Notes under the pieces: model-generated
The model's database searches: none
What the model saw: only the letters and a program-made list of their open reading frames with translations
Told to the model about the DNA's origin: nothing
NCBI GenBank assembly: GCA_964521295.1
Contig: CAZFRF010000001.1
Coordinates: 850,066 to 914,065, forward strand
Source: an uncultured Gammaproteobacteria bacterium
GTDB lineage: Bacteria; Patescibacteriota; Microgenomatia; Levybacterales; UBA12049
Direction: 5' to 3'
DNA: 64,000 nucleotides
Made by a program: the position numbers and the translations under genes
Shown here: positions 3,001-19,569 of the stretch, piece after piece
Layout of the letters: each line of letters starts with the position of its first letter
Numbering within the stretch: the stretch's first letter is position 1

Positions 3001-6000
3001 TGTTTTGCAAGAGAACTCGAGAGGTGGATTTACTTGTTGCATCTGTACCTTGGTTGTAAAAATATGTTCTATATATACTTGAGGGTGCTATTCCAACTCC
3101 AAGACTTCCGTTTACAAAGAGTCCATCACTTAAAGGTGTAAAAGTTGTGTTTGTAGCACCATTTGTAATGGTTGCATAGGTTGTTCCATTGTCCTTAAAA
3201 ATTACATCATCTCCAGCAGCGTCTAAAATGATATCTCCTGAAGAATCTAGAGTCATGTCTCCTGTAGAATTTAAGGTAAGAGTGGTAGTTGGTGAAATAG
3301 TTAACGATCCATCAGTTGTAATGTTGTCACCATTAACTGCTAAGTTGCCAACTAGAGTAAGGGCACCGGCTCCACTTAAGGTCATAGCAGTAGTTGTTCC
3401 TCCATACCATTTGAACTGTTGGCCAGTTGTACTTACGGTAGAGAACATTGTTCCAGATTCAATACCTAAAGTGTAGCCAGCAGCAGATCCACTTAGATCG
3501 TTATATAAAACAATTTTTACTCCAGAGCTATAATTTGTGAATGTTGGTGCGGCAACACCTGTGGTGTTAAAGTTAATTCTATCTGAAGTTATCGAAATAT
3601 CTCCACCACTTGGATTAATTGTTAAGTCTCCACCTGAGTTAGTAGTTAAATCTGCATAGTTTGTAGCAGATCCATTACTATCGTTATATGTTAGTCTTAG
3701 GTTAGTTCCACCAGATGAATTAATTTCTAAGGCTCTATCTGGAGCAGTTGTGCCTACGCCAATATTACCGTTTTGTAAAATTGTTAGCATGTTTTGCATG
3801 GTAATTGCTCCATCTGCGGCTCCTGCAGCATTTGATATATTAAAGCTCATGGTTCCAGTTGAGGGGCTAACGTTAATTTCGCCTCCATAATGAGCTGTGC
3901 TGCCTTGGCCAAATTTCCAACCACTGTTGTAATACGCATTAAAACCAACAGTTGGATTGGATGCGACTGTATATAGAGGGAATGATGATCCAAATTTTCC
4001 AAATGTATTTCCAGTTGCTTTTTCTATATCTAGAGCTACTTCTGGAGAAGTTGTGCCAATACCAACTTTTCCCGTAGAGCTTTCGATCATCATGTCTGCT
4101 GTTCCTGCAGCATTTGCTGCAAACCAAAGATTTTGCTGTGATCGAACAAAGACATCATATTGAGAGCTTCCTGTTATATAGGCGCCAGCTGTGCCAATAA
4201 TTCCAAACCAGCCCTTATCTGTTCCGACAGAATTTTTAAGTCCATAAAGAGTGTTAGTAGTAGCAGATGGTTGAGTTAAAGTAAGGTTATTGGTTACATC
4301 AACACTACTTGGAGTATAGATTTGTTGATTATTATATAAATATCTCCAATATCCTCCAGCTGGAATTCCGCTTGTAACTGTTCCTGCACCTGTATAGCCA
4401 TAACCGTCACCTGTATAGGTTATATGCATAGCAGCAGATCCTAAGGCTCCAGACTCACCAAGGGAGATATATGCTCCTTGAGATGTCCAGTTATCACCAG
4501 TGCTTAATGAATCTAAGACTAGTCTAGGTTGGGTTGCATCTGTGTCAGAAAGTACGTTATTTGCTGAGTTATATGTTCCTCCGATAGCATCAATGTTGCC
4601 AGTGACTGCAAGATTTGAAGAGGCGTCTAGTGTCATGCTTGTTGTAGTTCCTCGTCTGTCCCAGCTATATGCATCATAAGTATTAAAGACCATCGTGCTG
4701 CCTTTAACTCCAAGTCCATATGAATTTCCTGCTGTTGCGTCGGAGTATAAGAGAATTTGATATTCAGCAAATGTATCTAGGAATCCAGTAGCGACATTAT
4801 TTCCTAAAGTTAATTTTGCATCAGGAGTTGAATCTCCAATGCCCAATTTATTAGCAGAGTCATCCCAGAAGAAATTAGTATTGTCTTGTGAAAGAACTCC
4901 ACTAGTTCCAGCGAATACCACACTTCCTGGAGTCAAGGAGGTGTCGATTGATCCTAGATAGGTTGTGCCTGCAACTTCTAAATCACCTGTTACATAAAGA
5001 TCATCTCCTGCAAGGTCAACTATTCCTGGTGTTCCAGTTCCTATTTTTACTCCACCACCAGCTGCGTCTATTGTTAAATCACCAGATGAGGTAAGTGTAT
5101 TACCTGAAAGATTTAATGTTCCTGCTATGTCGTTTGATGTGCCATCAACATCTAGGTTACTTGATACATTTAGTGCCCCTGTTAAGGTTAACAATGCGCT
5201 AGTTCCAGCTAAGGTTGGTCCTGCGCTTCCTAATTTTATACTTCCTCTTGTTGTGTCAGACGAAGAATAAATACCCAAAGTATTGGCAACGTCAACGTCA
5301 GTTAAGAATGTGTCATCTCCAATCTTAAGCATTGATGTGCCTGCAGCTTTTCCATTGTCTGAAATATCTAGTCCAGTATCTGAGTAAATCCATCCTTCAG
5401 CTCCAATGGAATCAGTTACGAATAAATCATCTCCTGTTAAGCTAAATCCTGCTTGAGAAATAGTTTCTGATAAAGAGCCTACTAATAAGTCTCCATTTAC
5501 TGCTATATCTGCATCTATTAAAGATGCTCTGAGGGAAACTTGATCTATATATAGAGTACAAGCATTAGTTGGATTGTGATTATATATTTGAACAGCAGCA
5601 TGATAAGCATTTGCAGCTGATGTTACCTGTCCACTGTAATTATCCCAAGAGGTCGTAACTGCTCCAGAGTTTGAGTATATATCATTATAGCTTAGATAGT
5701 TTCCCCATTGGTCATACCAGATGACTCTTAAATAGAATCCATCTCCGCATGCTGTATCTACTTTTGCCCAAGTTGAGGCTGTATAGCCTGTGGAAGGGGA
5801 TACGGGTATCTTATATGAGGATATATTTTGTGACTGAGTATCTGAGCCAGTATTGGTTAAGTATAATCCCCATGCACCATCGTGATTTGCACTTTGATTA
5901 GCAATTCTTCCTCTTGTACCAGTTCCAGCTGAGTTCCAATTATCTGCTATACCTAATCCTCCAGCAAAGGTTTCGAAGCTTGGATTTGCGAGCATGTTTG

Positions 6001-9000
6001 TGTTATTGTATGGGGCAGGTATTGCTGAGTGAGATGCAACTGCAAAATCGTTTGCGGCATAAGTTAAGCCAGTAACATTTAAATTACCATCTACATCTAG
6101 ATTACTACCTATCTGGACAGATCCAGGCGTATAAATATTTTGAGTGTTATATGTATATCTCCAATATCCTCCAGCTGGAATACCAGATGTTACAGTTCCT
6201 GCGCCTGTATAGCCATAACCGTTACCAGTATAGGTAATATGCATAGACGCAGATCCTAGTGCTCCACCTTCTCCAATAGAGATATATGCCCCTTGAGCGG
6301 TCCAGTCATCTCCAGTGCCGACTGAGTCTAAAACGAGGTAGGGTTGACTTGCGTTAGCGGTATTACTTATATTGCCAATATTTGTAATATTTCCTGTTGT
6401 GTCTATAGCCCAATCAGATGTAGTTATTGCTCCTGTTTCTCCACCATCACCAAGAGTAAAGATTCCATTTGCATCCAGGGTTCCATTAGCGGTTAGAGTT
6501 CCAGTTGATGTTAATCCTCCTGCGCCAACAGAAACTAGGCCTCCTTCTGCATTAAGGAATAGTGTACTTGCTGTAGTTCCTGCAGTTCTAGCCATAATTT
6601 CATTACCATCCATTGTGATGTTGTCACCAGCAGTGTCGCCAAGAATTAATGCGCCTGAAAGGGCAGTTGCTAATGAAGAATCTCCAGTATTATTTAATAC
6701 AACTTGTCCACCACTTGGATCAATAGTTAAATCTCCACCTGAGTTGGTAGTTAAATCTGCATAGTTTGTAGCAGATCCATTACTATCATTATATGTTAGT
6801 CTTAAATTTGTTCCACCAGATGAATTAATCTCTAAGGCTCTATCTGGAGCAGTTGTTCCAATACCAACATTACCACCTATAGGATTAAGAGATAGCGCTC
6901 TTTGAGTTGAGCCATTTTCAACAGATTGAATCCAGGAGTACATTGTAGATGTATTGTCTACTCCCATTGCCAATCTCATTGCTGTTGTACTTCCTGTAAT
7001 TAGGGAACTACCTAATTCTCCTGCTGGAGTAGTTGATCCACCAGCAACGTGTAATTTAGTTAATGGTCCTGTTGTGCTAATGCCTACATTTCCAGCGAAA
7101 TAGTTTTGATCAGTAGAGCTATTGTAAATAGAGTATGTGCCTGTTGGAATTGAGGTAGAGCCAATTACTAAGTTCGATTGATTTGTTCCCGTAGCTTCTC
7201 CAATTAAGATACCTGCATTATTAGTTCCGGTAGTTAAGCCTCCAACTTGAATACCCATTTGATTCGTTAGGGTTCCAGTTACAGTACCATTATTTATTCC
7301 ATAATTAATACCATTGGTAACAGTGTGTCCTGTTGCTGAATCGATTCTACTCCAAAGTCCATATGCATTTGTGGTAGTCCCTCCGTTACCAGCTCCTGTT
7401 ACTAATGATAGTAGGCCAATTAAATTTGCTTGCGTTCCAGTTGTATGAGTAGCTCCTGTGTTAAGTCTTAAATTTTGTTTTAAGCCTGTATCTGCAGCTG
7501 AGTAATTAATAGTAGAGTATATACCAAATTGCTCAGTTGCTGTGGCTGAGCCCCAAGTCTTAGCAACAGAAAGTCTAGTTGTAGATCCAGGAGCAGCAGT
7601 ACCAATTCCTAAAGAATCATTCGTGTCATCATAGAATAGGCTGGCATTATCCTGTGAAAGAACTCCGCTTGTTCCAGCAAAAACAACGCTTCCTGGTGTA
7701 AGTGCAGTATCAATTCCACCGTCTGTATATAAAACTCCATCGACTTCTAAGTCTCCTTCAACAAACAAGTCATCGTCTCCAGTAGCAGTTCCAGGAGTTG
7801 CAGTATCTCCAACTCTAACATATGAAGTCCCATTAAGTGTAAATGCGGCACCAGTAGTCATTGAAGTTAGAGATGAGGCAGTAATGCCGGTTGTGCCAGA
7901 GAAAGTAAGGCCTGTATTTGTTAAAGTTGTGGTTGCACCAAGAGTAAGTCTACTAGTTCCTGCTGAGTCTAAGATATCATTGCCGTTTACTCTAAAATCG
8001 TCTGCAATCGTAAGTGCTCCTGCATTAGTCAAGCTCATGTAGCTAGTAAGCGCACCGAGGCTTGTTCCAAATCCGAATCTAGCAACTGTTCCTGTAGTAT
8101 CAGTCCATATGCCAAAGTTTCCAGTACCATCTGCTAATCCAATTCCGCCTCCATATGATCCTGAAGCTGTTAATGCAAATGTATCGATGCCATTACTTGG
8201 GTTTGTAGCAGAGGTAATACCAGTAATTTGACCAACTTGTGTTGTACCACCAACACTTAGATAGTTTCCACTTCCTATCACTACATTAGAGCCACTTGGA
8301 TTAATGGTTAAATCTCCGCCTGAATTAGTAGTTAAATCTGCATAGTTAGTTGCAGAACCATTGTTATCATTGTATGTAAGTCTTAGATTATTTCCAGTTG
8401 CTGAATTAATTTCTAAAGCTCTATCAGGTGCTGTTGTGCCGATACCGACATTACCATTGCCCTTTACTGTTAGAAGGTGGGTGAGAGCGGTTCCAGGAGC
8501 ACTTGATATTGGCGTTCCTAAGACTCCAAATACTCCTTGGTTTACATCGTCAGCGCCCAAATATATTGCTCCGGCAGAGGTAATACCTCCGTTATTTGAT
8601 CTCAAATAAACTTCATTAGCTGCTCCTACTGCATTTTGAACATTTACTCCTATTACCTTAGCAGCATATCCAACACCTGTATTTACATCTCTACTGTTTA
8701 GGATATATAAATCAGATTCAGTTACTGATCCACCTTGCAGATTTGTTATGAAATCACCGGTGCCACCAGCACCAGAGGTTCCAGTAACTTGAAATTTTGC
8801 AGTGGGATTAGTAGTTCCAATTCCGACTCTTCCATTCCCTGCAATTGTCATAGCGTTTGTAAGTCCTGCGTCTCCGCCGGGAGATGTTTGAAAATCGAGT
8901 CTAGAACCGTTAAGAATATCTATTGTTTGATTAGAGGCAGACTGAAAGACTAAGCTTCCTGATATTGAAGCGTCACCTGTTGTTGCATTAAAGTTAATAT

Positions 9001-12000
9001 TTGAATTTGTATCAGGAGTTGAGTTTGTAGCATTATTTGCTGGATTGCTTGATCCAAAAATACTGAGCCATGTGCCAGTTTTTACAGCTAAAGTGGAATT
9101 AGCTATACCTAAAGCGAATGAATTTGACCAAAGTCCTACCTTCCAGCCTAAGTTTGTTCCTACTGTAAGTGGAGAACCGGTAATTGTGGTATTTCCATTT
9201 GCAGCAATATATCCATTATTGTTAATTAATCCGCCTGTCCCGTTATTTGGTAAGAGAGTAATATTTCCAGTAGTACTTCCTCCAATAGTTAAGGTATTTT
9301 GATCATAGGATTGAATAGATCTACTGGCTCCTTCTAGAACTAAGTTTCCAGAAACTGAAGCAGAGCCATCTAGTCCTAATAAATTGTTTTGATCCATTCT
9401 GATTCCAAAATTTCCATTACTTGACCAAGCTGACGCATAAGTTTGAGATGTAGGAATTTCCTCTAACATGAATCCATCAAAAAGAGCAGTTGTACTTGCA
9501 CAGTTTGCATCTACCCTAATAATTACTGCAGTTGATCCTGAATTAGAGGTAAAGGTGTTGCTAAGTCTAGTCCATGACGAGGTATCTGCTGTTCCTCCTG
9601 CTGATCTATGAGTCCCATCGCTTTCTCTTACATACATTTCTACGCTACAAGTCGTACCCGCAGAAAGCTTAGAATACACAGAAAAAGCATATTTTGTACT
9701 TGGTTTAATTGGTATGTTGTAGCTAGTTGAGGATGTTCCATTTAGGTAAGCATATCCGTCTGTAGCTGATCCATTGGTACTAACTGCTACGCTTCTTGTT
9801 CCGTCATATGCATCTGCGGTACTAATGGTAACTGAAGTTACATTTACATTTCTAGCTGAAGGAATATTTGTTCCATCTACACCTGTTTCCCAAGATGCAT
9901 ATTGATAAGGAAGAATATTTTTACCGGCAATTATTCCAGATGCACCAAGTCCACCAGATATATTTACAAATCCTGAACCATTACTTGGAGATAAATTAAT
10001 ATTTCCAGTAGTGCTTCCACCAATGGTTAAGGTATTGTTTCTAACAGATTGCAATGATCCATTTCCAGATAGATAGATACCTTTTGTTGCATCTGATCCT
10101 GCAGTTGCTGAAACAGATGCTATTGGTGTTAGTGTTCCTGCTATATTTAATACTGCAAACTGTGCAGAACTTGTTGAATTACCTCCAACTAGTAAATCCA
10201 TGGTGTTATTAATTGGAGTTAAAGCTTTACCATCAGTAGAGGTTGTCCACCAGTTAGTGCCTAATGCGCAATTTACCCAGGATGCAGTTGCTCCGCCAGC
10301 TATACATTGAGATCCTGTTCCATAATTTAATCCATTAGATCCAAGAGAAATTCCACCAGCTCTAGTTATGGTAAAGACTGGAGTGCCTGATGCTGAAGCG
10401 GTGAAAATATCCTGATTTTCAATCTGATCAAAAATAGAGAGAGCTTTACCTGTTGCTCCAGAGGCAAGTGGCCTGCTTACATATAGTTGAGATGTTGGTA
10501 CTGTATTACCAACTCCAAGTCCAACTAAACCAGTATTGGTGATAGTAAGTCTAGTATTTGATCCCTGATAGATTCTAAAATCATCTTGATAAGCATCTAA
10601 GTTATAGGCATTAACTGTGGTATCGTAATCGGCTGCGGTGTATAGAATAACTTCTCCTCCTTCAGAGCTTCCTGTTCCATTACCATAAGCGTGAAATAAT
10701 CCTCCAGTAGTATCATTGACACCAGCATATATATTGCCATTTTGTGAGGTAAAGGCTCCTGATGTTATTAAATCTCCGCCACTAGGATTAATTGATAAAT
10801 CTCCACCTGAATTTGTAACTAAATCTGCATAGTTAGTTGCAGAACCATTGTTATCATTGTATGTTAATCTTAAATTAACTCCAGTTGCTGAGTTAATTTC
10901 TAAGGCTCTATCTGGGCCAGTTGTGCCTATGCCAACATTGCCTGCGCTAGGGAAATACATAGCAGTTGAGCCATTAACATTGATACTTAACGGATCATTA
11001 GCACTAGTTATGAATGCAGAATTGTTTCCTTGTCCAAAATCAAAATTTCCAGTAGTGTTTTCTGTTCTTACATAATTATTTGAAGTATCTCCTCCATGTA
11101 ACCAAAGACCTTGATTGTTCCCTGAAGCAAGATATTGCTGCATTGCTCCTCCTTGAACATTTAATTTTGAAGTTCCAGGATTAGTTGTGCCTATGCCAAC
11201 ATTGCCATTCCCTGCAATTGTCATAGCGTTTGTTAGTCCCGCATCACCGCCAGGAGAGACTTGAAAATCAAGCCTAGAACCGTTAAGTATATCTATTGAT
11301 TTATTTGATCCATTAAATACAAGACTACCTGATGTAGAAGCGTCACCATTAATGTCAAGTTTGGCAGTAGGTGTGGTGGTATTTATTCCTAAATTTCCAC
11401 TTGTATCAAATCTCGCAATTTCTGAATTGTTAAGGAAGAAGCTGACAGGATTATTTGTAATGGTTCCAATAACTAATTTCGCATTGTTATTATCCCAATA
11501 AAATCTTCCAGTATTTGTGCCTGTAGAATTTGCTACCAAGAATCCTGATCCACCAGAGCTTGTATTGACTACTCTCGCATATATAGGATTTGTACTTGAT
11601 CCAGAGATATCAAGTGGTTCTGTTGGGCTTGATGTTCCAATTCCAACATTACCGTTTCCATTCCTAGGCATTAAAGCTATATTCCCAGTAGTACTTCCTC
11701 CAATGGTTAAGGTATTGTTTCTAACAGATTGCAATGATCCATTTCCAGATAGATAGATACCTTTTGTTGCATCTGATCCTGCAGTTGCTGAAACAGATGC
11801 TATTGGTGTTAGTGTTCCTGCTATATTTAATACTGCAAACTGTGCAGAACTTGTTGAATTACCTCCAACTAGTAAATCCATGGTGTTATTAATTGGAGTT
11901 AAAGCTTTACCATCAGTAGAGGTTGTCCACCAGTTAGTGCCAAGAGCACCAGCCGCGCAAGTAGATAAAATGTTTGAACCATCATAACAGAGTGGATTGG

Positions 12001-15000
12001 AGGCTCCTGAGTTTAATGTTCCAATTGCTAATTTATCATCTGTTTTAAGAGTATCAGCTGCTGATCTGTATAAATTAGTATCTCTAGAAGCACCAAAAGC
12101 AATTCCATTGGCAGCATCAGTATTATCAGCACCAGATGATAACCAAAGAACTTGAGTATCAGCGCCTGCTATTGTTATTCCGTAATCATTAGTATCTCCT
12201 CCTGTTTGATCTTGAATATATAGACCATGATTGTTGACGATGGTGCCTGTCGAAGTAGGGTTTTGAATATGGATACCATATGCGTTAGTAATTGTAGCCG
12301 TGGCATTAGATGCTGATATAAGAGATGTTATTCCATAACAGTTTGTTATTGTTGTCCCTGCGCTAGCAGCTTGGCATTGTGACCATATGCCATATGTATT
12401 TGTAAATGTTTCAGATAGGCCACTAGACTGTAATCCTCTTGCCCAAATTCCATAAGTAGTATCTGCATCTTGTGAATCAAAATATCCTCCGTATCCAGTA
12501 ACGATTCCATTTGAAGCGTAATCTCCATTTTCATAGGATTGAGCATATATTCCTCGGCTTGTCGTTATGGTTGCGCCGTCAGTTGTGGCATAGGAAATGA
12601 ATCTACCACCGTCATTGTTAGTTACAGTACCACCCGCATTACTGTTTTGGGCAATACCATATATGCCCATATTACTTGTTACTGTTCCTGCGGCATTCAA
12701 ATTTGCAATTCCATATGTGCCGGCCGAAGTAGTTGCTGTATTACCAAAGGAAGAGAGAGTGGAGGAGCTTATTAAGGAATATCCTTGAGTTCCATAAGAA
12801 GTGTCAATTGTGTAGCCATTGTTTAATTGCGATACGTTATATCCTGCGATTGCAGTATGTGAGAACATATCGTCACTTGCAGTGGTAGTTACATAATTAT
12901 ATAGTCCATAATCTGTTCTATTTGCGTTAATAGTTCCAGTTATGGTTCGTTGAACTGTGCCTGTATATGTTTTTGCGTTAATATCTGAATTTGAATCATT
13001 TATGTCAAAAAGTCTATCTGTTCTCGCAATAGTTCCATTGCCAAGTGCTAGGGTTGGGGCAAGAGCGTTTCCGTTTGAATCTACTTGGAAAAGGTCTCCA
13101 TTTCCAACTACAAATAGCTTAGAAGGAGTGGAATCTCCAATTCCTACGTTTCCACCGTTTGGTTGAAGTAAGAGATATGATGTTGTTTTAGTAGCGTGTG
13201 ATGTTCCTTCAAGAGTAAGATTTCCATTAGCAGCAGTGTCTCCATAAACTGTTCCTGCACCATTTCTAGGCATTAACCAAATATTTCCAGTAGTATTTCC
13301 ACCGAGAGTTAAATTGTTATTAGTTGTAGTCTGAATGCTTCTTGCTCCGCCTGATAGGGTAAGGTTTCCTGCAATTGATGCAGTCGAGCCAACCGTAAGG
13401 GTATCATCGATAGTTACATCGTTGTAGAATCTAGAATCTCCATTGTCATCAATTGCGAATGATGTCCCGCCTCTAATTTGGAAAACTATTCCGTTGGTTC
13501 CAGCTGAAGGAGCAGTATTGGATGAATCCGTAGTGGCATTAATTATTAAGCTTTTAGCATTGTTAGTTGCTGAATAGCTTGTTAAAAAGTTGCCTCCAGC
13601 AGTACCGCCAATTCCAACATTTTGAGTTGTGCTTCTGCCGATATTGGCAACATCAGTAATGTCTCTAAAGGCTGATAATAAGGAAATTGGGGTGGTTGTG
13701 CCAATTCCAACATAGCCTGAGTTGTTAAGAGGGGAGAGGATTATATTCCCAGTAGTATTTCCGCCTATGGTGAGTTGTTGGTTGGCAGTAGATTGAATTT
13801 GAGCAGTGCCATTTCTGAAAGTAAATTGTCCGCCGACAGACGCTGCGCCGTCTACATCCAATATTGCAGTGGGAGAAGTGGTTCCAATTCCCAATCTACC
13901 ATTTGGTGTAATTCTCATTTGCTCTGATCCACCAAGCTTCCAGGTTAGGGTAGGTGCAGATGCGCCTGTGATTTCTTGCTCAATTATATTAGTAGCCTCT
14001 GTAAAGTTGTATTGAAAAATTGGCAGATTTGATCCACCTGCTCTTTGTAATCTAAATAATGTACCATCTCCAGTACTATTTACTTGGAGTCTAGCAAGAG
14101 GGTTAGTAGTTCCAATTCCTACATTGCCACCTGCACCATTTTTTGGCATTACAATTAAATTTCCGGCAACAGTTGCAGTTGCTGGTCCTGTTCCATTTAA
14201 GCCTAGAACTGCGAATTTTGCAGTTGCTGTAGCTGTTCCACCTAAAAGAAAGTCCATTGTTGAGTTAATTGGAGTTAAAGCTTTTCCATCAGAGGAGGTG
14301 GTCCACCAATCTGTTGGAAGTCCGCTCGCACAAGAACCCCAGGTGGGAGTTGTAGCTCCAGAAACTAAACAAAGTCCAGAGCTACCAGTTACTGCGCTTA
14401 AAGCTCCTGTTGCTGAATCAGCATATAAGACTCTATTGTTTCCGGTGAAGGAGGTAGTTAGCGTTCCTATTAAGGTTGCGGATCCTAACTGAAGCGTACC
14501 TGCTGAAGCATAAATATCATGATTTCCAGATCCACTAAACCTAAGATCTGCTCCGGTTCCACTTAATACTATGCCTGTTGCTCCACCTACTGAAATATCA
14601 CCTGAATTTGTTTGGTTTCCACCGTTATCTACGGTAAATACTGGCGCTCCAGAAACGGAAGCGCTAATTACTGGACCTGTAGAATTTTGATTTACTGTGA
14701 ATGCCGATTGTCCAGATGAGGTAGCGAGAATTGCAAACTGATCATTAACTTCAACTGCTCCTGCTGCTGTAAAAGCTCCTGCTGCTGATCTAATATTGGT
14801 AGAAAGAGTATTGTTTTGTAAAGGTTTTTGGACATCAATTTTACCAGTGCCATTTGGACTAATGACTACATTTGAATTACTAGAGTCATTAGTTGTTAAA
14901 AGTAATGGTTGACCTGAAAGCTTAAATTGTCCGCCGCTTGCTGAGAAAGCAGGTGAGGCTGATCCACCAATTGTTAGGTTTCCGGATGAGTCTAGGGCTA

Positions 15001-16582
15001 AGACAACATTTGATGTGCCTGCGGCTGTAGCAGTGATTGGAAGAAGTCCTTGTAATGTTTCAGAATTCGCTGCATAGCCGACAGTTGCAATTTGTTGCCT
15101 AGGAGTAAGCTCTCCTGTTGATTCAACGGTTACACCTAGGAACAAAGCTGCATTTTCTGCAAATAGAGTAGAGGGGATTGCACATTGTCCAGTTGCAATT
15201 GCGATTGGATTAGCGCAGGTTGGTCCACTACCAAGTAAGGTATTAAAAATACCATCTTGGTCTGGTGTTACTTTGTCTACTTCTTGCCAAAGTAAAATAC
15301 CTGCACCTGTTCCTGGAGTTTGTTGAGTGTAGATCGCAAATCTAAGATTGGTTAAAGAAGTAATAGGATTATCATTGTTATCTGTAAGTCTTCCTTGGAA
15401 GGAAAGGATTCTATTTGGTGAGGTTGGTAGGTTAGGAGCAGCTGTGATTTTAGATTGGTTTCCAAAGAAGGAATTATAAAAACCTAAAGATATGGCAACA
15501 ATAACGATAATAAATACTGCAAAGTGGAAATAGTGGGTAATTGCATATGAATGATATCTTTTGTACCAATTTGGTCTAGTAAATCTAGCGTGAAAAATAA
15601 TTCTTTGTAGAGGAGAAAGAGAACTAACGGCTATGGTTGAAGGTGCAAAAACCTTTTTAGAAATATTTCTTATACCCAATAAGTCTTTGTGGGTAATGTT
15701 TTTAATTTGAAATGTTTGGGGATTCTTGTGAAAAATTGGTTTTCCTTTGAGTGTCCAGGCTAAATCTTGTCCTTTTTTAGCAAAAGAAGCTAAAGGAAGT
15801 ATTAATGCAGCATCTAAAGCTAAGATTAATCCTTGGGATAGTTTCTGAGCAAGTCTTAAAGGAGGGAATCTGGAATATGTTTTAGTTTTAATTTCTGGTT
15901 GTGAAAATTCAGGAGTCTCAGGTATAAATAATTTTTGTTTTGCCTCATTTATATTTGTGAAATCTAATACTTTTTCAGTTAAGATGCCAGCTTCATCTGC
16001 CCAAGTTAGATATTTTCTCAAAGAAGATAGTTTTCTATTAACAGAGGCTGGCGAAAAGCCTTTGGAGCTACTTAATGCTGTCTTGTATTCTTCGATAAAT
16101 TCCTTGCTTATTCTGCCTGGTAATATTGAGTCTTCGAGTCCAGTGGCTTCCTTTGCCCAATTAATGAATTGTTTAACATCAATGATATAGTTTTTTATAG
16201 TAAGATGCGCTGCGTTAGTATCGAATAAGCTGCTTTTGAAATCCTTTAGCTTCCAATAGTCTTTTTCTTCTGGTTTATTTAAGGCTAAAGCTTCGAAAGG
16301 ATCAAAGGTTATTTGATTTTCGATCTTAAGGAATTTGAAGAATTTTCTAAGGGATGATAAGTGTCTTTGCATTGATGAAGCAGAGAAGACTGAGGAGTTG
16401 TCTTTTTTGTACTCTTCGAGTGTTTGGAAATTAACTTGGCCAGGAGTAAAGCTTGAGTTGTATTTCTGAGAAAACCAGTTAACGAAATGATTAATATCCG
16501 ATAAGTAGTTTTTTACAGTAACCTTTGAAGGCTGAACTTCTTGTGAAAATAAATAATTTTTAAAGCTTGTTAATAAATCCAT
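1..16582 (-). CDS. Giant cell-surface repeat protein of at least 5,527 codons; its 3' end lies beyond window position 1. Domain order: N-terminal 2x integrase-SAM-like (core-binding-like) repeats, one TM helix, then tail-fibre-like 'GNVGIGTTxP(D/T)xALEINS...NSGGDLTINPSG' repeat units, two CBM4_9-like jelly-roll modules, and Kelch-like blades.
   Basis: Manual reverse-complement translation from ATG (complement of 16580-16582; an in-frame stop lies just upstream at 16604-16606) stays open in one frame (codon first bases at positions congruent to 1 mod 3) all the way to position 1. The frame was spot-checked at 12002-12058 and at 1-10. The gene is absent from the ORF track because no stop lies inside the window. 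All listed ORFs in 1-16582 are short, antisense or out of frame. N-terminus: MDLLTSFKNYLFSQEV...RHLSSLRKFFKFL plus a second copy ...NRKLSSLRKYLTWA, then a hydrophobic helix HYFHFAVFIIVIVAISLGFY. Confidence 0.8.
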   Translation of the reverse strand, partial: MDLLTSFKNYLFSQEVQPSKVTVKNYLSDINHFVNWFSQKYNSSFTPGQVNFQTLEEYKKDNSSVFSASSMQRHLSSLRKFFKFLKIENQITFDPFEALALNKPEEKDYWKLKDFKSSLFDTNAAHLTIKNYIIDVKQFINWAKEATGLEDSILPGRISKEFIEEYKTALSSSKGFSPASVNRKLSSLRKYLTWADEAGILTEKVLDFTNINEAKQKLFIPETPEFSQPEIKTKTYSRFPPLRLAQKLSQGLILALDAALILPLASFAKKGQDLAWTLKGKPIFHKNPQTFQIKNITHKDLLGIRNISKKVFAPSTIAVSSLSPLQRIIFHARFTRPNWYKRYHSYAITHYFHFAVFIIVIVAISLGFYNSFFGNQSKITAAPNLPTSPNRILSFQGRLTDNNDNPITSLTNLRFAIYTQQTPGTGAGILLWQEVDKVTPDQDGIFNTLLGSGPTCANPIAIATGQCAIPSTLFAENAALFLGVTVESTGELTPRQQIATVGYAANSETLQGLLPITATAAGTSNVVLALDSSGNLTIGGSASPAFSASGGQFKLSGQPLLLTTNDSSNSNVVISPNGTGKIDVQKPLQNNTLSTNIRSAAGAFTAAGAVEVNDQFAILATSSGQSAFTVNQNSTGPVISASVSGAPVFTVDNGGNQTNSGDISVGGATGIVLSGTGADLRFSGSGNHDIYASAGTLQLGSATLIGTLTTSFTGNNRVLYADSATGALSAVTGSSGLCLVSGATTPTWGSCASGLPTDWWTTSSDGKALTPINSTMDFLLGGTATATAKFAVLGLNGTGPATATVAGNLIVMPKNGAGGNVGIGTTNPLARLQVNSTGDGTLFRLQRAGGSNLPIFQYNFTEATNIIEQEITGASAPTLTWKLGGSEQMRITPNGRLGIGTTSPTAILDVDGAASVGGQFTFRNGTAQIQSTANQQLTIGGNTTGNIILSPLNNSGYVGIGTTTPISLLSAFRDITDVANIGRSTTQNVGIGGTAGGNFLTSYSATNNAKSLIINATTDSSNTAPSAGTNGIVFQIRGGTSFAIDDNGDSRFYNDVTIDDTLTVGSTASIAGNLTLSGGARSIQTTTNNNLTLGGNTTGNIWLMPRNGAGTVYGDTAANGNLTLEGTSHATKTTSYLLLQPNGGNVGIGDSTPSKLFVVGNGDLFQVDSNGNALAPTLALGNGTIARTDRLFDINDSNSDINAKTYTGTVQRTITGTINANRTDYGLYNYVTTTASDDMFSHTAIAGYNVSQLNNGYTIDTSYGTQGYSLISSSTLSSFGNTATTSAGTYGIANLNAAGTVTSNMGIYGIAQNSNAGGTVTNNDGGRFISYATTDGATITTSRGIYAQSYENGDYASNGIVTGYGGYFDSQDADTTYGIWARGLQSSGLSETFTNTYGIWSQCQAASAGTTITNCYGITSLISASNATATITNAYGIHIQNPTSTGTIVNNHGLYIQDQTGGDTNDYGITIAGADTQVLWLSSGADNTDAANGIAFGASRDTNLYRSAADTLKTDDKLAIGTLNSGASNPLCYDGSNILSTCAAGALGTNWWTTSTDGKALTPINNTMDLLVGGNSTSSAQFAVLNIAGTLTPIASVSATAGSDATKGIYLSGNGSLQSVRNNTLTIGGSTTGNIALMPRNGNGNVGIGTSSPTEPLDISGSSTNPIYARVVNTSSGGSGFLVANSTGTNTGRFYWDNNNAKLVIGTITNNPVSFFLNNSEIARFDTSGNLGINTTTPTAKLDINGDASTSGSLVFNGSNKSIDILNGSRLDFQVSPGGDAGLTNAMTIAGNGNVGIGTTNPGTSKLNVQGGAMQQYLASGNNQGLWLHGGDTSNNYVRTENTTGNFDFGQGNNSAFITSANDPLSINVNGSTAMYFPSAGNVGIGTTGPDRALEINSATGVNLRLTYNDNNGSATNYADLVTNSGGDLSINPSGGDLITSGAFTSQNGNIYAGVNDTTGGLFHAYGNGTGSSEGGEVILYTAADYDTTVNAYNLDAYQDDFRIYQGSNTRLTITNTGLVGLGVGNTVPTSQLYVSRPLASGATGKALSIFDQIENQDIFTASASGTPVFTITRAGGISLGSNGLNYGTGSQCIAGGATASWVNCALGTNWWTTSTDGKALTPINNTMDLLVGGNSTSSAQFAVLNIAGTLTPIASVSATAGSDATKGIYLSGNGSLQSVRNNTLTIGGSTTGNINLSPSNGSGFVNISGGLGASGIIAGKNILPYQYASWETGVDGTNIPSARNVNVTSVTISTADAYDGTRSVAVSTNGSATDGYAYLNGTSSTSYNIPIKPSTKYAFSVYSKLSAGTTCSVEMYVRESDGTHRSAGGTADTSSWTRLSNTFTSNSGSTAVIIRVDANCASTTALFDGFMLEEIPTSQTYASAWSSNGNFGIRMDQNNLLGLDGSASVSGNLVLEGASRSIQSYDQNTLTIGGSTTGNITLLPNNGTGGLINNNGYIAANGNTTITGSPLTVGTNLGWKVGLWSNSFALGIANSTLAVKTGTWLSIFGSSNPANNATNSTPDTNSNINFNATTGDASISGSLVFQSASNQTIDILNGSRLDFQTSPGGDAGLTNAMTIAGNGRVGIGTTNPTAKFQVTGTSGAGGTGDFITNLQGGSVTESDLYILNSRDVNTGVGYAAKVIGVNVQNAVGAANEVYLRSNNGGITSAGAIYLGADDVNQGVFGVLGTPISSAPGTALTHLLTVKGNGNVGIGTTAPDRALEINSATGNNLRLTYNDNNGSATNYADLTTNSGGDLTINPSGSNVVIGSGNYLSVGGTTQVGQITGITSATNPSNGIDTFALTASGSYGGGIGLADGTGNFGIWTDTTGTVARFGFGTSLGALTSYMSLTNAGALTIADDFRVNGNDILDSAGTSRLTLGATTTLTNTGLTFSGTTGITASSLTSMTTGAAFTLNGTSYVRVGDTATPGTATGDDDLFVEGDLEVDGVLYTDGGIDTALTPGSVVFAGTSGVLSQDNASLFYDDTNDSLGIGTAAPGSTTRLSVAKTWGSATATEQFGIYSTINYSAADTGLKQNLRLNTGATHTTGTQANLIGLLSLVTGAGNGGTTTNAYGLWSRIDSATGHTVTNGINYGINNGTVTGTLTNQMGIQVGGLTTGTNNAGILIGEATGTNQSNLVIGSTSIPTGTYSIYNSSTDQNYFAGNVGISTTGPLTKLHVAGGSTTPAGELGSSLITGSTTAMRLAMGVDNTSTMYSWIQSVENGSTQRALSLNPIGGNVGIGTTAPDRALEINSSGGTNLRLTYNDSNGSATNYADLTTNSGGDLTIDPSGGQVVLNNTGDSSLATALSGALILGDTAGDNITMDGNEIMARTAGTTASTLFLNAEGGLVSVGAGGLTSTGTLTANGTLDANGIFTLGDGGETGAITTSDWAIDTTGNITNIGNISNTANASQPYLVLDSVGTGDDWTAQGAYISIGEGGALGSASMHITYTGNGYGYTGAGTVTSGIPAGGYWRYTYNTQNIYTPGSVQIGSNLDVDGNLNVTGLTYAANDFAVASHSAIPAPYNNTNMLANPSFETFAGGLGIADNWNSAGTGTRGRIANQSANHDGAWGLYLTNTGSDTQSQNISSYKIPVSPSTGYTASTWAKVDTACGDGFYLRVIWYDQWGNYLSYNDIYSNSGAVTTSWDNYSGQVTSAANAYHAAVQIYNHNPTNACTLYIDQVSLRASLIDADIAVNGDLLVGSLSETISQAGFSLTGDDLFVTDSIGAEGWIYSDTGLDISDNGKAAGTSMLKIGDDTFLTDVDVANTLGIYSSSDTTRGSIKLGSAGPTLAGTSALLTLTGALNVSSNLDVDGTSNDIAGTLNLSGNTLTSSGDLTIDAAGGGVKIGTGTPGIVDLAGDDLYVTGDLEVAGTTYLGSIDTSLTPGSVVFAGTSGVLSQDNTNFFWDDSANKLGIGDSTPDAKLTLGNNVATGFLDTFAEYQILLYSDATAGNSYGLGVKGSTMVFNTYDAYSWDRRGTTTSMTLDASSNLAVTGNIDAIGGTYNSANNVLSDTDATQPRLVLDSLSTGDNWTSQGAYISLGESGALGSAAMHITYTGDGYGYTGAGTVTSGIPAGGYWRYLYNNQQIYTPSSVDVTNNLTLTQPSATTNTLYGLKNSVGTDKGWFGIIGTAGAYITGSSQYDVFVRSQQNLWFAANAAGTADMMIESSTGKVGIGTTSPEVALDIEKATGNTFGKFGSSFPLYTVASNPTVGFNAYYNSGWKFGQGSTAHYGGEINVSPSTGTMSFNISNAAGAADGAITMQNMLTILQNGNIGVGTTAPDRALEINSSGGTNLRLTYNDSNGSATNYADLTTNSGGDLTINPSGGDISITSDRINFNTTGVAAPTFTNYSSGVKIVLYNDLSGSAAGYTLGIESGTMFSTVSTTGQQFKWYGGTTTAMTLSGAGALTLVGNLAVNGDNITTDGSLTISPTTTLTLNSTGDMTLDSSGDIILDAAGDDVIFKDNGTTYATITNGATNTTFTPLSDGLFVNGSLGVGIAPSSIYRTYFYNQGTDATSKSTSRVLLQNICTSVACSGQYLALDAAAENHSASTQNTTGSLIAIGGTIGNSDTGTVAGVRGLSLTLSGNSGTITNTYGVYIGDLTAGTQTNTPYSIYSSDAGTYNYFAGEVGVGTASPNGIGGGGIMEIVNNDASTNTALTVLNLTRSSTGTAADGIGARLEFNLEDDGSTIREAATINALLTDSSNGSIDSALTFNTRYNQSAFREVLRLTGNSLVGLGTTNPTSELYVTRALSAGTTGKSLTILDQIENQDIFAASSSGTSRFVITNAGKVGINNPLPSGYLSIKAVGAGAPTLVEGYDTTTGTNKAFTLNTDSNGNGSLDLYITGSKKVHLVAWGGDSSYILDSDFGLGTTTPKAKLDVAGSASISGNLAYSGGTNNFSNYVLNGSKLNFMVSPGGTEGNGDIGDGFSTANQSQLPQALNDTFGSITSASVNGTTYIYSLGGQNSGGTSLSTVYKSRVDATFGNAGTFSSTANALPGIRWGGGATTATIGSSTYVYLIGGSSGSVQSTAYYATLSNSDGNPGTFATTSPILATRLEPAVTTATVGGTTYIYAMGGFNSTAVNTNPTSTVYKATVNSNGTLGTFSTTSPLLANRGGGGAVSATIGSSTYVYYVGGGDSQGRSTVYKAAVNPSNGTLGTFSSVTGLPMNRQEGGTEIVTLNDKTYIYSIGSGDNNAVTSSNAVYKTALDSSGNPGTWSSSGQSQLPQNVAYIGTTLVTVNGNSYIFAVGGSGESAASLSTVYRAGIGNVALTIANNGYVGIGTSNPGAQLAITWGPDVSLSNAGTFIIGDTGGQNVGFDNNELQARLNGTTSKLWLNNNGGEVGIGAGGLDVEGNIQLDIQNVSGTFAFCHGTNGAQADSNINDCNGSATDIAEYYPGTEDMEPGDLVSLVASSDARFKYQVVKPTTPYDQNLIGVVSTIPTGPNGDVLGDSTIPEDHYPQAIGLAGRVVVKVSLENGPIRTNDYLTSSSVPGVAMKATKSSRVVGRAIEDYDGTVQVSSGSRDQERY
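3603..3750. repeat. Copy of a ~140-bp near-identical coding repeat (the module encoding ...NSGGDLTINPSGG...LRLTYNDNNGSATNYADL...)
   Basis: Visual alignment with 6711-6858 gives roughly 95% identity. It is more distantly similar to 8297-8435 and 10785-10920. Confidence 0.6.
6711..6858. repeat. Copy of the same ~140-bp coding repeat
   Basis: Contains 'atctccacctgagttggtagttaaatctgcatagtttgtagcagatccattactatc' as in 3603-3750. Confidence 0.6.
8297..8435. repeat. Copy of the same ~140-bp coding repeat, sub-family B
   Basis: Contains 'aaatctccgcctgaattagtagttaaatctgcatagttagttgcagaaccattgttatcattgtatgt', nearly identical to 10785-10920. Confidence 0.6.
10021..10261. repeat. Intragenic 240-bp perfect direct repeat, copy 1 (inside the giant gene)
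   Basis: Read directly: 'caatggttaaggtattgtttctaacagattgcaatg...catcagtagaggttgtccaccagttagtgcc' is identical at 10021-10261 and 11701-11941. The offset is 1680 bp, which is 560 codons, so the copies are in frame. Confidence 0.9.
10785..10920. repeat. Copy of the same ~140-bp coding repeat, sub-family B
   Basis: See 8297-8435. Confidence 0.6.
11701..11941. repeat. Intragenic 240-bp perfect direct repeat, copy 2
   Basis: Identical to 10021-10261. The 20 bp flanking upstream already diverge at a few positions. Confidence 0.9.
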
Positions 16583-17114
16583 TTTAATTGTGACTCTTAA
16601 TATTTAAAAAAGAGTAGGCAGGCACGAGATTATACAGATTATACGCATTATACTCTTGTGAAAAAGAAAATTTACTCATACTATTAGAATAGAAAAAAAT
16701 GAATTTTCAAGTCAATGACCTAGAGTAAAGATCCATAAGATATTTTGATATAGTTTAATATATTCTAGAAAAAATGAATTTCACGGGAAAAATGGTGCAT
16801 TTGTTGAGCATTTAGTTGAAGTAGGGGGTTATAGGTCAAATTTTATATATTTCAAAATATAACAAAGTATAACATTGATTTTGTAATTCTAAATTGTTGT
16901 CCTAATGCTTTCCTAAATATTGATTAAGAAATTAATTAAATATTATGCCTGAAAGGTATTATTTTAGCAGACATTGTCTTTTACTGATAAGATAAATTTA
17001 TAATAGTTTTAGATTGTTAAATCAATAAAAATAACTTTATATTGCAGGTTATATTTATTAATTAGCTTCGAGCTTGTATTTAATATTATTTTCTATGTAC
17101 AATAAGTGTAAGTA

Positions 17115-18014
17115 ATGAAGACTCTGCCCAGAATTGTACTTATTTTTTCTTTTCTTCTTTTGTTCTTAGCAAAGGGAAGCTCAGTTTTTGCTCAACAAGC
17201 AGTTCCTTTGGTTGCCCCAAGGCCAGGAGCATCCTCAACAACAGTATCGGGGACAATAGGAAATTATTACATTACTCTTAAGGGTTATATTGCTCCTTTT
17301 GCTTCCATAGTTTTATACGGATCTGATGGTGCTTTTCTAAAAGCAGTTGTTACAGACTCAAAAGGATATTTTACAGTCACAGATTTATTAGTTAAGAAAG
17401 GTTTTTCTAAGGTTTGTTTTGATGCAATTGACTTTAAAAGACTAGGTGAATCATATTCTTGTCTTACTTTTTCGCCTATTGAGGGACCACGAACAATTGA
17501 TGGTATTTTTCTACCACCAACCCTTGGTTTATCTAGATCAGAGATAGCAGCTGGTTCCTCAGCTATTGCTTGGGGTTATTCTATGCCATATGCAATTGTA
17601 ACTGTGCACGTTGGTAATGTTGTCTATTCAACTACTGCAGATTCTAATGGATATTATCAAATTGAGCTTAAAAACGTAAAAGCTGGAGTATATTCTTTAT
17701 ACTCAACTGCGGAATTAAATGCAAAACCTTCGCTAGATCCTCAAAAAAGAGTACAGCTAAAAGCTTTGTCATGGTGGGAGCAGTTTATTGCTTGGATAAT
17801 GCAGCTTCTTAAAAAGATTTGGGTATTCTTAACTTCATTTACCATAACACCGTTTTGGATTGCTATACCAGTCTTTATCCTCATTATTATACTAATTTTA
17901 AAGATCTGGCCTGAGAAATTTACCATTCTTTATCACAATAGATTAGTAATCTTTTTTACCAAACTCTTTAGAAGACATAAGCCTCTTCATCACGAATACT
18001 TCATGGGTTATTAA
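17115..18014 (+). CDS. Secreted, C-terminally membrane-anchored protein with two carboxypeptidase-regulatory-like / Ig-like beta-sandwich segments
   Basis: N-terminal signal peptide MKTLPRIVLIFSFLLLFLAKGSSVFA. C-terminal TM IPVFILIIILILKIW. Motifs 'TVHVGNVVYSTTADSNGYYQIELKNVKAGVYSLYST' and 'IVLYGSDGAFLKAVVTDSKGYFTV' fit CarboxypepD_reg-like patterns. Confidence 0.55.
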   Translation: MKTLPRIVLIFSFLLLFLAKGSSVFAQQAVPLVAPRPGASSTTVSGTIGNYYITLKGYIAPFASIVLYGSDGAFLKAVVTDSKGYFTVTDLLVKKGFSKVCFDAIDFKRLGESYSCLTFSPIEGPRTIDGIFLPPTLGLSRSEIAAGSSAIAWGYSMPYAIVTVHVGNVVYSTTADSNGYYQIELKNVKAGVYSLYSTAELNAKPSLDPQKRVQLKALSWWEQFIAWIMQLLKKIWVFLTSFTITPFWIAIPVFILIIILILKIWPEKFTILYHNRLVIFFTKLFRRHKPLHHEYFMGY

Positions 18015-19478: not shown

Positions 19479-19569
19479 GTAAATAAAATAAGTGCTACTA
19501 TTACTATCTGATTTTTAAAATCAATTGTCAAGGTTTTTTGGGCTTAATTTAGATTCAAAACTGAAGATT

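Follow-up and report, generated by a model that had tools for sequence, protein, structure and literature searches.

What is a recombinase-like module doing inside the cell, at the start of a giant surface protein? The protein is encoded by an uncultured Levybacteria-type (CPR) bacterium, and we examined the question in a 64,000-nt stretch of DNA from this organism (the window). The gene is real and lies on the minus strand at the position originally predicted. Its M1 (nt 16582-16580) aligns with M1 in all homologues, confirming the start codon. The open frame continues to window position 2, so the protein is at least 5527 aa long, with a C-terminus beyond the window. The peptides quoted in the original prediction were located exactly in its translation: VTVKNYLSDINHFVNWF (aa 21-37), QRHLSSLRKFFKFL (aa 72-85), LTIKNYIIDVKQFINWA (aa 127-143), NRKLSSLRKYLTWA (aa 182-195) and HYFHFAVFIIVIVAISLGFY (aa 350-369, nt 15535-15476). 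The features of the gene are as follows.

2..16582, minus: giant ORF, at least 5527 aa, ATG at 16582, running past the window edge
16268..16582, minus: core-binding (CB, SAM-like) domain 1, aa 1-105; best Pfam PF02899 stretch aa 5-88, also AF2 and Foldseek
15968..16267, minus: CB (SAM-like) domain 2, aa 106-205; SAM_4 at aa 113-191, SAM_5 at aa 128-205
15878..15967, minus: disordered variable linker, aa 206-235; mean conservation 0.17, pLDDT 52-72
15536..15877, minus: family-specific, strongly basic juxtamembrane module, aa 236-349
15476..15535, minus: single TM helix, aa 350-369; N-in, C-out signal anchor present in all homologues
15380..15412, minus: conserved fibre start, RILSFQGRLTD, aa 391-401, from the homologue alignment
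9506..9832, minus: CBM_4_9 carbohydrate-binding module in the fibre, about aa 2251-2359; Pfam PF02018, E=2.5e-8

Two core-binding domains without a catalytic domain

Two N-terminal repeats of about 120 aa had been proposed; both are present, at a size of about 105 aa each, and share 37% identity over 83 aa (pairwise BLASTP, E 3e-16). In a test set in advance, both repeats showed strong similarity to integrase N-terminal SAM-like/core-binding profiles by Pfam, NCBIfam and hhalign. Pfam Phage_int_SAM_1 (PF02899) matched two stretches within residues 1-205 with E=1.2e-21 and 77.2 bits (cut-off 22.3 bits), which is well above chance, and SAM_4 (E=3.6e-11) and SAM_5 (E=1.2e-8) also matched the N-terminus. 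When compared by hhalign with the N-terminal domain of XerD, repeat 1 scored E=4.9e-6 and repeat 2 E=2.4e-4. The AF2 model of aa 1-205 has a pLDDT of 93-98, with helices at 2-13, 20-41, 52-61, 68-87 and 95-102 in CB domain 1 and at 112-121, 126-147, 160-172 and 178-197 in CB domain 2. Nearly all of the best PDB matches of this model found by Foldseek are recombinase core-binding domains, including 3nrw (TM 0.75, rmsd 2.1), XerA, lambda Int, Tn1549 Int and Cre; a PDB sequence search likewise aligned 3nrw_A to aa 121-204 in CB domain 2. The NCBIfam XerC and XerD models match at positions 3-100 of about 295 only and, as the original prediction held, no catalytic domain was found after the CB pair by Pfam, NCBIfam, PDB sequence search or fold search. 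Residues 1-205 are two tandem XerC/XerD-type core-binding domains with no DNA-cutting domain.

Invariant residues include T22, K24, N25, Y26, D29, F33, S70, R73, S76 and L78 in CB domain 1, and T128, K130, N131, Y132, D135, N182, R183, K184, L185, S186, S187 and R189 in CB domain 2, which is the more conserved of the two (mean conservation 0.58). The median net charge of the pair is +8, and the linker between its domains measures 20-24 aa in 146/170 loci.

Topology and fixed architecture of the family

After the CB pair come a flexible linker, the conserved basic juxtamembrane module, a single TM helix and, on the outside of the cell, a fibre exceeding 5000 aa. The linker is without secondary structure in the AF2 model and differs in length between homologues. 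No Pfam or PDB relative of the juxtamembrane module was found; it carries the motifs YSxFPPxRLxQK, a long helix (240-279), GKPxF, NIxKxxYAP and TRPxWYKxYHSY, and its AF2 model is helical with a pTM of 0.30. The predicted single TM helix preceding the fibre is indeed one conserved helix (KD19 peak 2.23), with three K/R before it and one after. Across 77 homologues the 80 residues preceding it have a median net charge of +12, and those past it are acidic. No signal peptide was found at the N-terminus. A second hydrophobic stretch may be a membrane-embedded segment, given the values for aa 248-267 of this protein (KD19 1.78, mean hydrophobicity <H> 0.63); however, the insertion energy of aa 248-270 is unfavourable in 77/77 homologues. 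In this second test set in advance, charge and hydrophobicity, together with the conserved single TM helix and the missing signal peptide, place the CB module in the cytoplasm.

The fusion of CB pair, TM helix and fibre recurs in related genomes and, judged from sequence comparison, its architecture is fixed across a Microgenomates/Levybacteria family. Counted over Levybacteria and other Microgenomates, this family takes in at least 245 species genomes and, at 50% identity, 370 clusters. A profile search with the juxtamembrane module gave the 370 clusters, the module starting at about residue 225-335 in full-length matches. All 46 homologous ORFs that end within their own locus encode 677-3718 aa; 34 more extend beyond the end of their available DNA. 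Homologue searches found no family member without CB domains, and RILSFQGRLTD has homologues in Levy-, Collier-, Shapiro- and Roizmanbacteria.

A tandem repeat in the leader of the gene

Between promoter and start codon lies a short tandem DNA repeat.

16686..16715, minus: predicted sigma-70-type promoter, TTGACT-18 nt-TATTCT
16629..16653, minus: three tandem GTATAAT units, GTATAATGC GTATAATCT GTATAAT, with a 9-bp period; candidate DNA target of the CB pair
16617..16628, minus: conserved 3' flank of the repeats, CTCGTGCCTGCC in this locus; family consensus YTYGWRGCTAAA

The units end 46 nt upstream of the ATG and are unique in the window, against 0.1 occurrences expected. In the family the element consists of two to three GTATAAT units with a 9-bp period followed by YTYGWRGCTAAA, set between a canonical promoter and the start codon, with the consensus (nnATAAT)(GTATAAT)(GTATAAT)YTYGWRGCTAAA. 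The period is 9 bp in 314 spacings. In the PWM, information is confined to a block of roughly 37 bp and the surrounding DNA carries none; G19 (0.98) and G22 (0.94) of the 3' flank were not imposed by the search pattern. The repeat occurs in 71/77 homologous loci, 66 of them exact and 5 with one mismatch (exact repeats were also counted as 66/80), and the exact form is found once per locus, directly upstream of the gene and on its strand. Moreover, a metagenome scan with the motif only recovered a CB-CB gene at 69/77 testable loci, 2-433 nt downstream of the motif and within 262 nt in 68. More divergent lineages also keep a tandem ATAAT-type repeat: Shapirobacteria (L203) as TGATAAT units, Roizmanbacteria (L201), the Microgenomates group (L206) and L204/L205.

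Among family instances, TTGAC is present upstream in 153/155 and a TAnnnT box follows at 16-19 nt spacing in 147/155. From the predicted promoter here, the transcript would carry the repeats from about +26 to +50.

A candidate DNA-reading head at the membrane

The presence of the repeat before the gene in nearly all readable relatives points to a membrane-tethered DNA-binding device, and its conserved linkage favours a DNA-binding or regulatory reading of the CB module. From this association across loci we infer that the CB module binds nucleic acid and that the repeat is what it reads. A ToxR-like head with its candidate site in its own leader, acting in autoregulation, is our leading proposal, to which we assign a probability of roughly 0.4. 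Such a layout would match that of ToxR/CadC-type one-component regulators, although its DNA-binding fold differs from theirs.

Recombinases make most of their base-specific contacts through the N-terminal helical bundle, which reads about 5 bp (PMC5241119). The recognition helices of Cre are B and D, and its K43, part of the T-W-K motif, bonds to Gua9 in the loxP arm (PMC5766204). The family's own T-x-K lysines (K24 in 152/170, K130 in 168/170) and helix-D arginines (R73 in 169/170, R183 in 148/148 aligned) are nearly invariant, as is the DNA core across loci. We take Gua9 to lie in ...CGTATA of loxP. An hhalign alignment with Cre sets K24 on K43 and R73 on Q90, although weakly (E=0.024, probability 1%). 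Against the proposal, recombinase CB domains in isolation are generally known as weak DNA binders.

The same one-to-one association of repeat and gene would, however, be produced by a gene-specific regulator encoded elsewhere that reads the repeat, or by RNA polymerase/sigma itself. The latter may be favoured by the perfect TATAAT in each unit and by the resemblance of the 3'-most unit plus conserved flank to a -10 box and start region. The variable promoter-to-repeat distance, 9 to 48 nt, also counts against a CB head acting on its own leader. An RNA-level role may be considered because the element is always transcribed; against it, no RNA structure (z=+0.78), Rfam family or internal covariation was found in the element.

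If the CB pair does read the repeat, it would be a domesticated, membrane-held head that recognizes a specific DNA sequence, with one CB domain per GTATAAT unit, placed head-to-tail in the major groove. Bound at or just past the transcription start, the head would block the giant gene's transcription or modulate it, and the locus would be held at the membrane by the fibre base. Since the head is made first, it could act in cis during transcription of the remaining 16-kb-plus gene. More speculatively, the state of the fibre outside, on contact with a host or polysaccharide, might alter DNA binding. We found no published description of such a membrane-tethered CB-CB fibre protein in the literature; if the proposal is correct, this family would represent an undescribed type of membrane-tethered DNA-binding device.

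Core-binding domains and membrane topology of the giant protein

The giant ORF begins at an ATG at 16582 on the minus strand and meets no stop down to window position 2; the window edge truncates it, so that at least 5527 aa are encoded. Its N-terminal part is organised as follows.

N-terminal features of the giant protein
aa 1-105, minus strand: repeat 1, ~105 aa
aa 106-205, minus strand: repeat 2, ~105 aa
aa 206-235, minus strand: linker, variable and disordered, conservation 0.17
aa 236-349, minus strand: juxtamembrane module, conserved and family-specific, with YSxFPPxRLxQK, a 40-residue helix, GKPxF, NIxKxxYAP and TRPxWYKxYHSY
aa 350-369, minus strand: single, conserved transmembrane (TM) helix
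aa 391-401, minus strand: conserved ectodomain start, RILSFQGRLTD

The original prediction described two repeats of about 120 aa; all of the peptides it quoted are present (aa 21-37, 72-85, 127-143 and 182-195), but each repeat is ~105 aa long. Pairwise comparison gives 37% identity between the two over 83 aa (E=3e-16). Their likeness to the core-binding (CB, SAM-like) domain of integrases was borne out by every profile and structure comparison, namely Pfam, NCBIfam, AF2/Foldseek and hhalign. Pfam Phage_int_SAM_1 (PF02899) matches two stretches at E=1.2e-21 (77.2 bits, cut-off 22.3). The CB region is matched by SAM_4 and SAM_5 as well, and the Phage_int_SAM_1 gathering threshold is likewise exceeded in the homologues L003, L023, L055 and L069. 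The closest profile relatives of the head (aa 1-205) are XerC and XerD; the NCBIfam equivalog models for these match only over positions 3-100 of ~295, with 80 bits against a cut-off of 335. In hhalign, the XerD N-terminal domain aligns with repeat 1 (E=4.9e-6) and with repeat 2 (E=2.4e-4). For aa 1-400, AF2 modelling from 51 family sequences yields two helical bundles with pLDDT 93-98 across aa 1-205, and the Foldseek matches of this model in the PDB are almost exclusively tyrosine recombinase CB domains (3nrw, TM 0.75, rmsd 2.1 A; also XerA, lambda Int, Tn1549 Int, Cre, XerH and IntI). The head has the same fold as the CB domain of XerC/XerD, XerA, XerH, lambda Int and Cre (PF02899, PF13495, PF13102), with significant profile and structure matches and the common motifs T-x-x-x-Y-x-x-D...F and S-x-x-R-x-L-S-x-L-R-x-F. 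We regard the CB identity of these domains as practically certain.

No recombinase catalytic domain follows, just as had been predicted. In Pfam, PF00589 (R-K-H-R-H/W-Y active site) gives no match even at E<=10, and neither Pfam, NCBIfam, PDB sequence search nor fold search detects such a domain. A degenerate catalytic domain behind the CB pair was considered and ruled out, there being no Pfam, NCBIfam or PDB match. Residues 206-349 have no relative in the PDB or in Pfam, and their predicted structure consists of a long helix and some short elements; modelled on their own by AF2, aa 230-400 come out helical at a pTM of 0.30, too poor for a fold search. Since no method detects a catalytic domain, the giant protein has a recombinase domain in common with these enzymes but is not a recombinase, and recombination is impossible for it. 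It differs from tyrosine recombinases further in carrying the CB domain as a tandem duplicate, which a TM helix joins to a giant fibre outside the cell.

We also note that the best PDB sequence match to the head (E=0.0015) is 9i5v chain 14, a 401-aa chain in a ribosome entry that is labelled 'RaiA'. Residues 11-96 of this chain align with aa 7-92 of the giant protein only via a XerD-like N-terminal domain with XerC/XerD-type motifs. The label may simply be odd, or the chain may be a recombinase-like protein bound to a ribosome.

The hydrophobic peptide originally proposed as a TM helix was found at aa 350-369. It is the sole segment with a near-neutral insertion energy (+0.06 kcal/mol here, family median +1.1). 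The median net charge is +12 in the loop before it and -5 in the first ectodomain residues, K+R makes up 12-16% of the head but 3.5% of the fibre, and no signal peptide is present at the N-terminus. Because of the single TM helix, the charge pattern, the drop in K+R and the lack of a signal peptide, a single-pass, N-in topology with the head in the cytoplasm and the fibre outside the cell is predicted with high confidence, in keeping with the location first proposed for the N-terminal module. The opposite placement of the head would follow if aa 248-270 formed a first TM helix, leaving the basic loop 271-349 inside and exposing the CB-like domains at the cell surface. Residues 248-267 of the window protein are indeed hydrophobic (KD19 1.78, <H> 0.63, low hydrophobic moment), and the basic loop would keep its cytoplasmic position. 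However, the insertion energy of aa 248-270 is +5.4 kcal/mol here, with a median of +8 over 77 homologues, and is favourable in none, so that a second TM helix was judged unlikely at the family level. The segment contains a conserved Asp and Pro and is deleted in the homologue P0021; export of a 247-aa N-terminal tail with 28 K/R and no signal peptide is very unlikely, and the K+R content of the CB region is unlike that of the ectodomain. We therefore consider an extracellular head highly improbable.

Family distribution, fibre and gene neighbourhood

Levybacteria and other Microgenomates are uncultured, reduced-genome CPR bacteria, and their giant surface proteins are thought to mediate contact with a host or substrate. 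A scan using one genome per species recovered at least 245 relatives, of which 80 were kept for locus analysis; those with a lineage name are nearly all Candidatus Levyibacteriota or Patescibacteria MAGs. The search for the same fusion in related genomes, suggested with the original prediction, shows the order CB-CB-TM-fibre to be fixed in at least 245 species genomes. In every one of the 80 loci the N-terminal module stands at the front of a large ORF, 677-3718 aa long in the 46 ORFs that end inside the locus, with many others cut at >3700 aa. Among 1.84 billion representatives, a juxtamembrane-plus-TM profile retrieves 370 clusters at 50% identity; in full-length matches to it the juxtamembrane module begins at about residue 225-335, i.e. 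behind the CB pair. The conserved ectodomain start also occurs in Collier-, Shapiro- and Roizmanbacteria, where CB domains are again present. We sought CB-less versions of the fibre in order to see whether the DNA repeat described below tracks the head or the fibre, and found none; the apparent cases are contig-edge fragments or split or frameshifted ORFs.

Full-text literature searches found no published description of the CB-pair/TM/fibre architecture. Public annotation labels proteins of this family 'site-specific integrase, partial', an error that inflates the counts of integrases and mobile elements in CPR genomes. Contigs carrying this Levybacteria-type gene and its synteny (L001, L006, L008 and others) are often titled 'uncultured Gammaproteobacteria bacterium', which looks like a systematic mislabel.

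In a second subfamily, comprising loci from metagenome and Shapirobacteria relatives (L093, L119, L122, L126, L127, L151, L158 and L203), the reading frame is broken inside the second CB domain. The break always falls just after the first long helix of that domain (...T[IV]KNYLxDxxxFLxW...), and after 60-480 nt the gene continues in another frame. Stop codons in these interruptions are mixed, and no group I or II intron was matched by Rfam. The insert in L119 holds a 121-aa ORF that by eye resembles the four-helix-bundle proteins of 23S-rRNA intervening sequences. The 'splits' in L212 and L202 resemble simple frameshifts between the two CB domains.

Within aa 301-5527 of the fibre the sole Pfam domain is CBM_4_9 (window 9506-9832, minus strand; E=2.5e-8). 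Peptidase_S74 and Peptidase_G2 domains, intramolecular chaperones typical of trimeric phage tail fibres and tailspikes, occur in the extracellular part of two homologues, L003 (aa 1996-2047) and L023 (aa 878-944), which suggests that the fibres are trimeric. Neither domain is matched in aa 301-5527 of the window protein, whose C-terminus lies beyond the window. In this respect the homologues resemble trimeric phage fibres with a C-terminal chaperone, whereas the present family is cellular, membrane-anchored and, like the DNA motif linked to it, essentially absent from viral contigs (IMG/VR). A phage origin or prophage cargo was rejected: IMG/VR yields three motif matches, which are chance matches with no CB gene downstream, and two weak protein matches, which cover part of the query at 31-36% identity. 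Across the body of the giant gene (window 1-12000) the GC skew is close to zero or negative, against positive values over most of 12000-64000, and AT skew is negative throughout the giant gene; the skews probably reflect the coding-strand composition of a repetitive fibre of low charge (K+R 3.5%).

Features elsewhere in the window
17115-18014, plus strand: divergent 299-aa gene, with signal peptide/TM and sub-threshold CarboxypepD_reg/Big-like matches
18030-24538, minus strand: upstream cluster of genes for 211, 249, 336, 480, 329 and 482 aa, with signal peptides/TM segments
24593-28680, plus strand: leuS, comEA (SLBB + HHH) and comEC (Competence domain), adjoining the cluster
41442-41514, plus strand: lone tRNA-Arg(CCT), an ordinary housekeeping feature
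49186-49301, minus strand: L10 leader, just above threshold, an ordinary housekeeping feature
60837-61423, plus strand: tRNA cluster Thr-TGT, Tyr, Thr-GGT, Trp, an ordinary housekeeping feature

The giant gene stands at the end of a conserved cluster, whose seven proteins are encoded immediately upstream of it and whose synteny is seen in 19-63 of the 80 homologous loci. The 480- and 482-aa proteins are paralogues, as are those of 336 and 329 aa, and the latter two (329 and 336 aa) show a weak likeness to the peptidoglycan-binding domain of WxL-interacting proteins (PF06030, E=0.005 and 0.022). The whole cluster, together with the fibre, probably builds a surface structure. No gene for another DNA-binding protein was found in the conserved cluster. 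The leuS-comEA-comEC neighbourhood is conserved in 28-49 homologous loci, and a functional tie of comEA/comEC to the head is unsupported.

A tandem GTATAAT repeat in the leader of the gene

Between the predicted promoter and the ATG of the giant gene lies a tandem array with a conserved 3' flank, hereafter the leader repeat.

Leader repeat
16653-16629, minus strand: three GTATAAT units with a 9-bp period, ending 46 nt before the ATG

The 37-bp element here reads ATAATnnGTATAATnnGTATAATCTCGAGGCTAAA. The pattern GTATAATNNGTATAAT has a single occurrence in the 64-kb window, against 0.1 matches expected. The leader repeat is found in 66/80 homologous loci, once per locus, always on the strand of the gene and almost always within 100 nt of its start; five further loci carry versions with one mismatch, and three are without upstream sequence. 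In the reverse test, metagenomes were scanned by the DNA motif alone, giving 80 loci, 77 of them testable. A CB-CB gene lies 2-433 nt downstream in 69/77, within 262 nt in 68 of those. Six of the eight misses are without the flanking consensus and look like chance matches; the other two (L097 and L118) have the full consensus, but only 301 and 403 nt of downstream DNA. The leader repeat is new and lies beyond the stretch covered by the original prediction.

A position matrix from 156 unique instances contains one informative block of ~37 bp, nnATAATCn GTATAATCn GTATAAT YTYGWRGCTAAA, and no information on either side of it. Behind the 3' unit come a conserved, discriminator-like stretch of 7 nt and GCTAAA, and in some loci the ATG follows the array within 2-13 nt. 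Divergent lineages retain a tandem array with altered units, e.g. TGATAAT in a Shapirobacteria locus (L203), or with a 10-bp period (L204). Upstream, a TTGAC box is present in 153/155 instances and is joined in 147 by a TAnnnT box at 16-19 nt spacing. Because the -10 box ends 9-48 nt ahead of the penultimate unit, the array is at or after the transcription start, in an operator-like or leader position. A structured RNA leader or riboswitch was rejected, with no Rfam family, a folding z of +0.78 and no covariation among the variable positions.

A possible link between surface fibre and genome

The nearest working analogy is with ToxR, TcpP and CadC, which share with the giant protein, as its topology is predicted, an N-terminal cytoplasmic DNA-binding-type domain, a linker, a single TM helix and an extracytoplasmic domain. 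At the ctxAB promoter, tandem heptad direct repeats (TTTTGAT) recruit ToxR together with ToxT (bioRxiv 10.1101/2021.05.14.444153). Membership of that family fails on the DNA-binding fold: the head is a duplicated recombinase CB bundle and not an OmpR-type winged helix, and in Pfam and Foldseek only CB/SAM-like families match it, with no OmpR/PhoB-type domain. Moreover, a fibre of >5000 aa lies outside the cell where those regulators have a small sensor domain, and DNA binding by the head is at present inferred. RsgI-type anti-sigma sensors of cellulolytic clostridia likewise combine a cytoplasmic effector, a single TM helix and an extracellular carbohydrate-binding module (here CBM_4_9). They differ in that the effector here is a DNA-binding-type module and the size is 10 times larger; no RsgI_N domain is matched by Pfam in the N-terminal region.

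In recombinases, the N-terminal helical bundle enters the major groove, makes most of the base-specific contacts and reads ~5 bp near the crossover region (PMC5241119). The recognition helices of Cre are B and D, and K43 of its T-W-K motif bonds Gua9 of the loxP arm (PMC5766204). In our family the T-x-K lysines (K24 in 152/170, K130 in 168/170) and the helix-D arginines (R73 in 169/170, R183 in 148/148 aligned) are nearly invariant, as is the DNA core. A weak hhalign alignment to Cre puts K24 on Cre K43 and R73 on Q90. In loxP (...TTCGTATA|ATGTATGC...), GTATAAT is an exact 7-mer spanning the arm/spacer junction, and the guanine bonded by K43 opens the arm part, GTATA. The inner arm of E. coli dif reads GCATAAT at the same place, which resembles the repeat unit. 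The candidate sites here are direct repeats with a 9-bp period, in contrast to the inverted arms around a spacer of recombinase sites. The CB1-CB2 linker is 20-24 aa in 146/170 loci, and the CB pair has a median net charge of +8. Taken together, we think it fairly probable that the CB pair binds DNA, and more tentatively we put forward the leader repeat as its candidate site.

Two head-to-tail CB domains, free of the bulky catalytic domain, would fit two adjacent direct repeats. We therefore propose that a membrane-tethered, sequence-specific head may act on its own leader and so autoregulate the gene. Such binding would hold the locus at the membrane and, with transcription coupled to translation, might take place in cis. 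An attractive origin would be capture of a recombinase gene with its adjacent core site. In its full form, the proposal is of a domesticated recombinase-site pair coupling surface to genome: the head would bind the core-arm-like leader repeats in cis and co-translationally, the locus would be tethered, and fibre assembly, occupancy or load would set expression. We give this a probability of roughly one in four.

The head could instead have another DNA or a protein partner as its ligand, and the leader repeat could be a second promoter, an operator for another regulator, a site of sigma pausing or a signal that acts at the RNA level; the second-promoter reading arises because the last unit and its flank resemble a -10 box and start region. 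It is possible, if doubtful, that the repeat is not a ligand of the CB pair, which may even bind no DNA at all and instead form a plug in the cytoplasm at the fibre base, with a structural, oligomerisation or partner-binding role and with an independent GTATAAT array acting as second promoter, sigma-dependent pause site or operator of another regulator. Each unit contains a perfect TATAAT, the discriminator-like stretch and GCTAAA follow the 3' unit, and an ATG within 2-13 nt fits a leaderless start in some loci. Vertical inheritance alone can hold gene and leader together, and the chaperone domains of the homologues, typical of trimeric fibres, make a cytoplasmic assembly role conceivable. 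However, a canonical -35/-10 promoter is already present upstream in 147-153 of 155 instances, and a -10 box needs neither a three-unit array of strict 9-bp period nor a conserved G before each TATAAT. Moreover, the most conserved residues of both CB domains are basic or polar and lie on helices that serve recombinases for reading DNA, where a passive plug would not need them, and the conserved cluster is without another gene for a DNA-binding protein.

That the CB pair binds other DNA seems to us rather improbable; on this reading it would anchor the nucleoid in general, a dif-like site on the chromosome or DNA entering the cell to the membrane at the fibre base. The basic charge of the module and its kinship with XerC and XerD would suit such a role, as would comEA and comEC, 8-10 kb away and syntenic in 28-33 loci. 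However, leuS separates these genes from the giant gene and the linkage may simply be conserved gene order, the fact that specific polar residues hardly vary points to a defined site and away from non-specific binding, and the 64 kb showed no further copy of any candidate site. Regulated release is less probable again. Here the fibre would sense contact or force, and cleavage in or near the membrane would free the CB pair as a soluble transcription factor, as in Notch or RsgI/RseP-type signalling. The parallel with RsgI-type sensors in cytoplasmic effector, single TM and large CBM-bearing ectodomain points this way, and the disordered linker (aa 206-235) could be a cleavage zone. However, the search near the gene turned up neither a protease site nor an autoproteolytic SEA-like domain nor a gene for a site-2 protease, and the conserved juxtamembrane module argues for function at the membrane.

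In summary, the original observation is confirmed and its interpretation supported, and the finding now takes in an architecture common to the whole family and a cis element linked to it. A whole family of giant fibres shares a head, predicted to be cytoplasmic, of two recombinase DNA-reading domains. If this head binds the linked repeat, it would be the first case known to us of a tyrosine-recombinase CB domain exapted as a membrane-tethered regulator, and would add a new DNA-binding fold to ToxR-type signalling. It would also provide a testable handle, 200 aa of protein and 37 bp of DNA, on regulation in unculturable organisms. CPR bacteria have very few conventional regulators; coupling of surface to genome, if true, would give them a direct mechanical or occupancy sensor.
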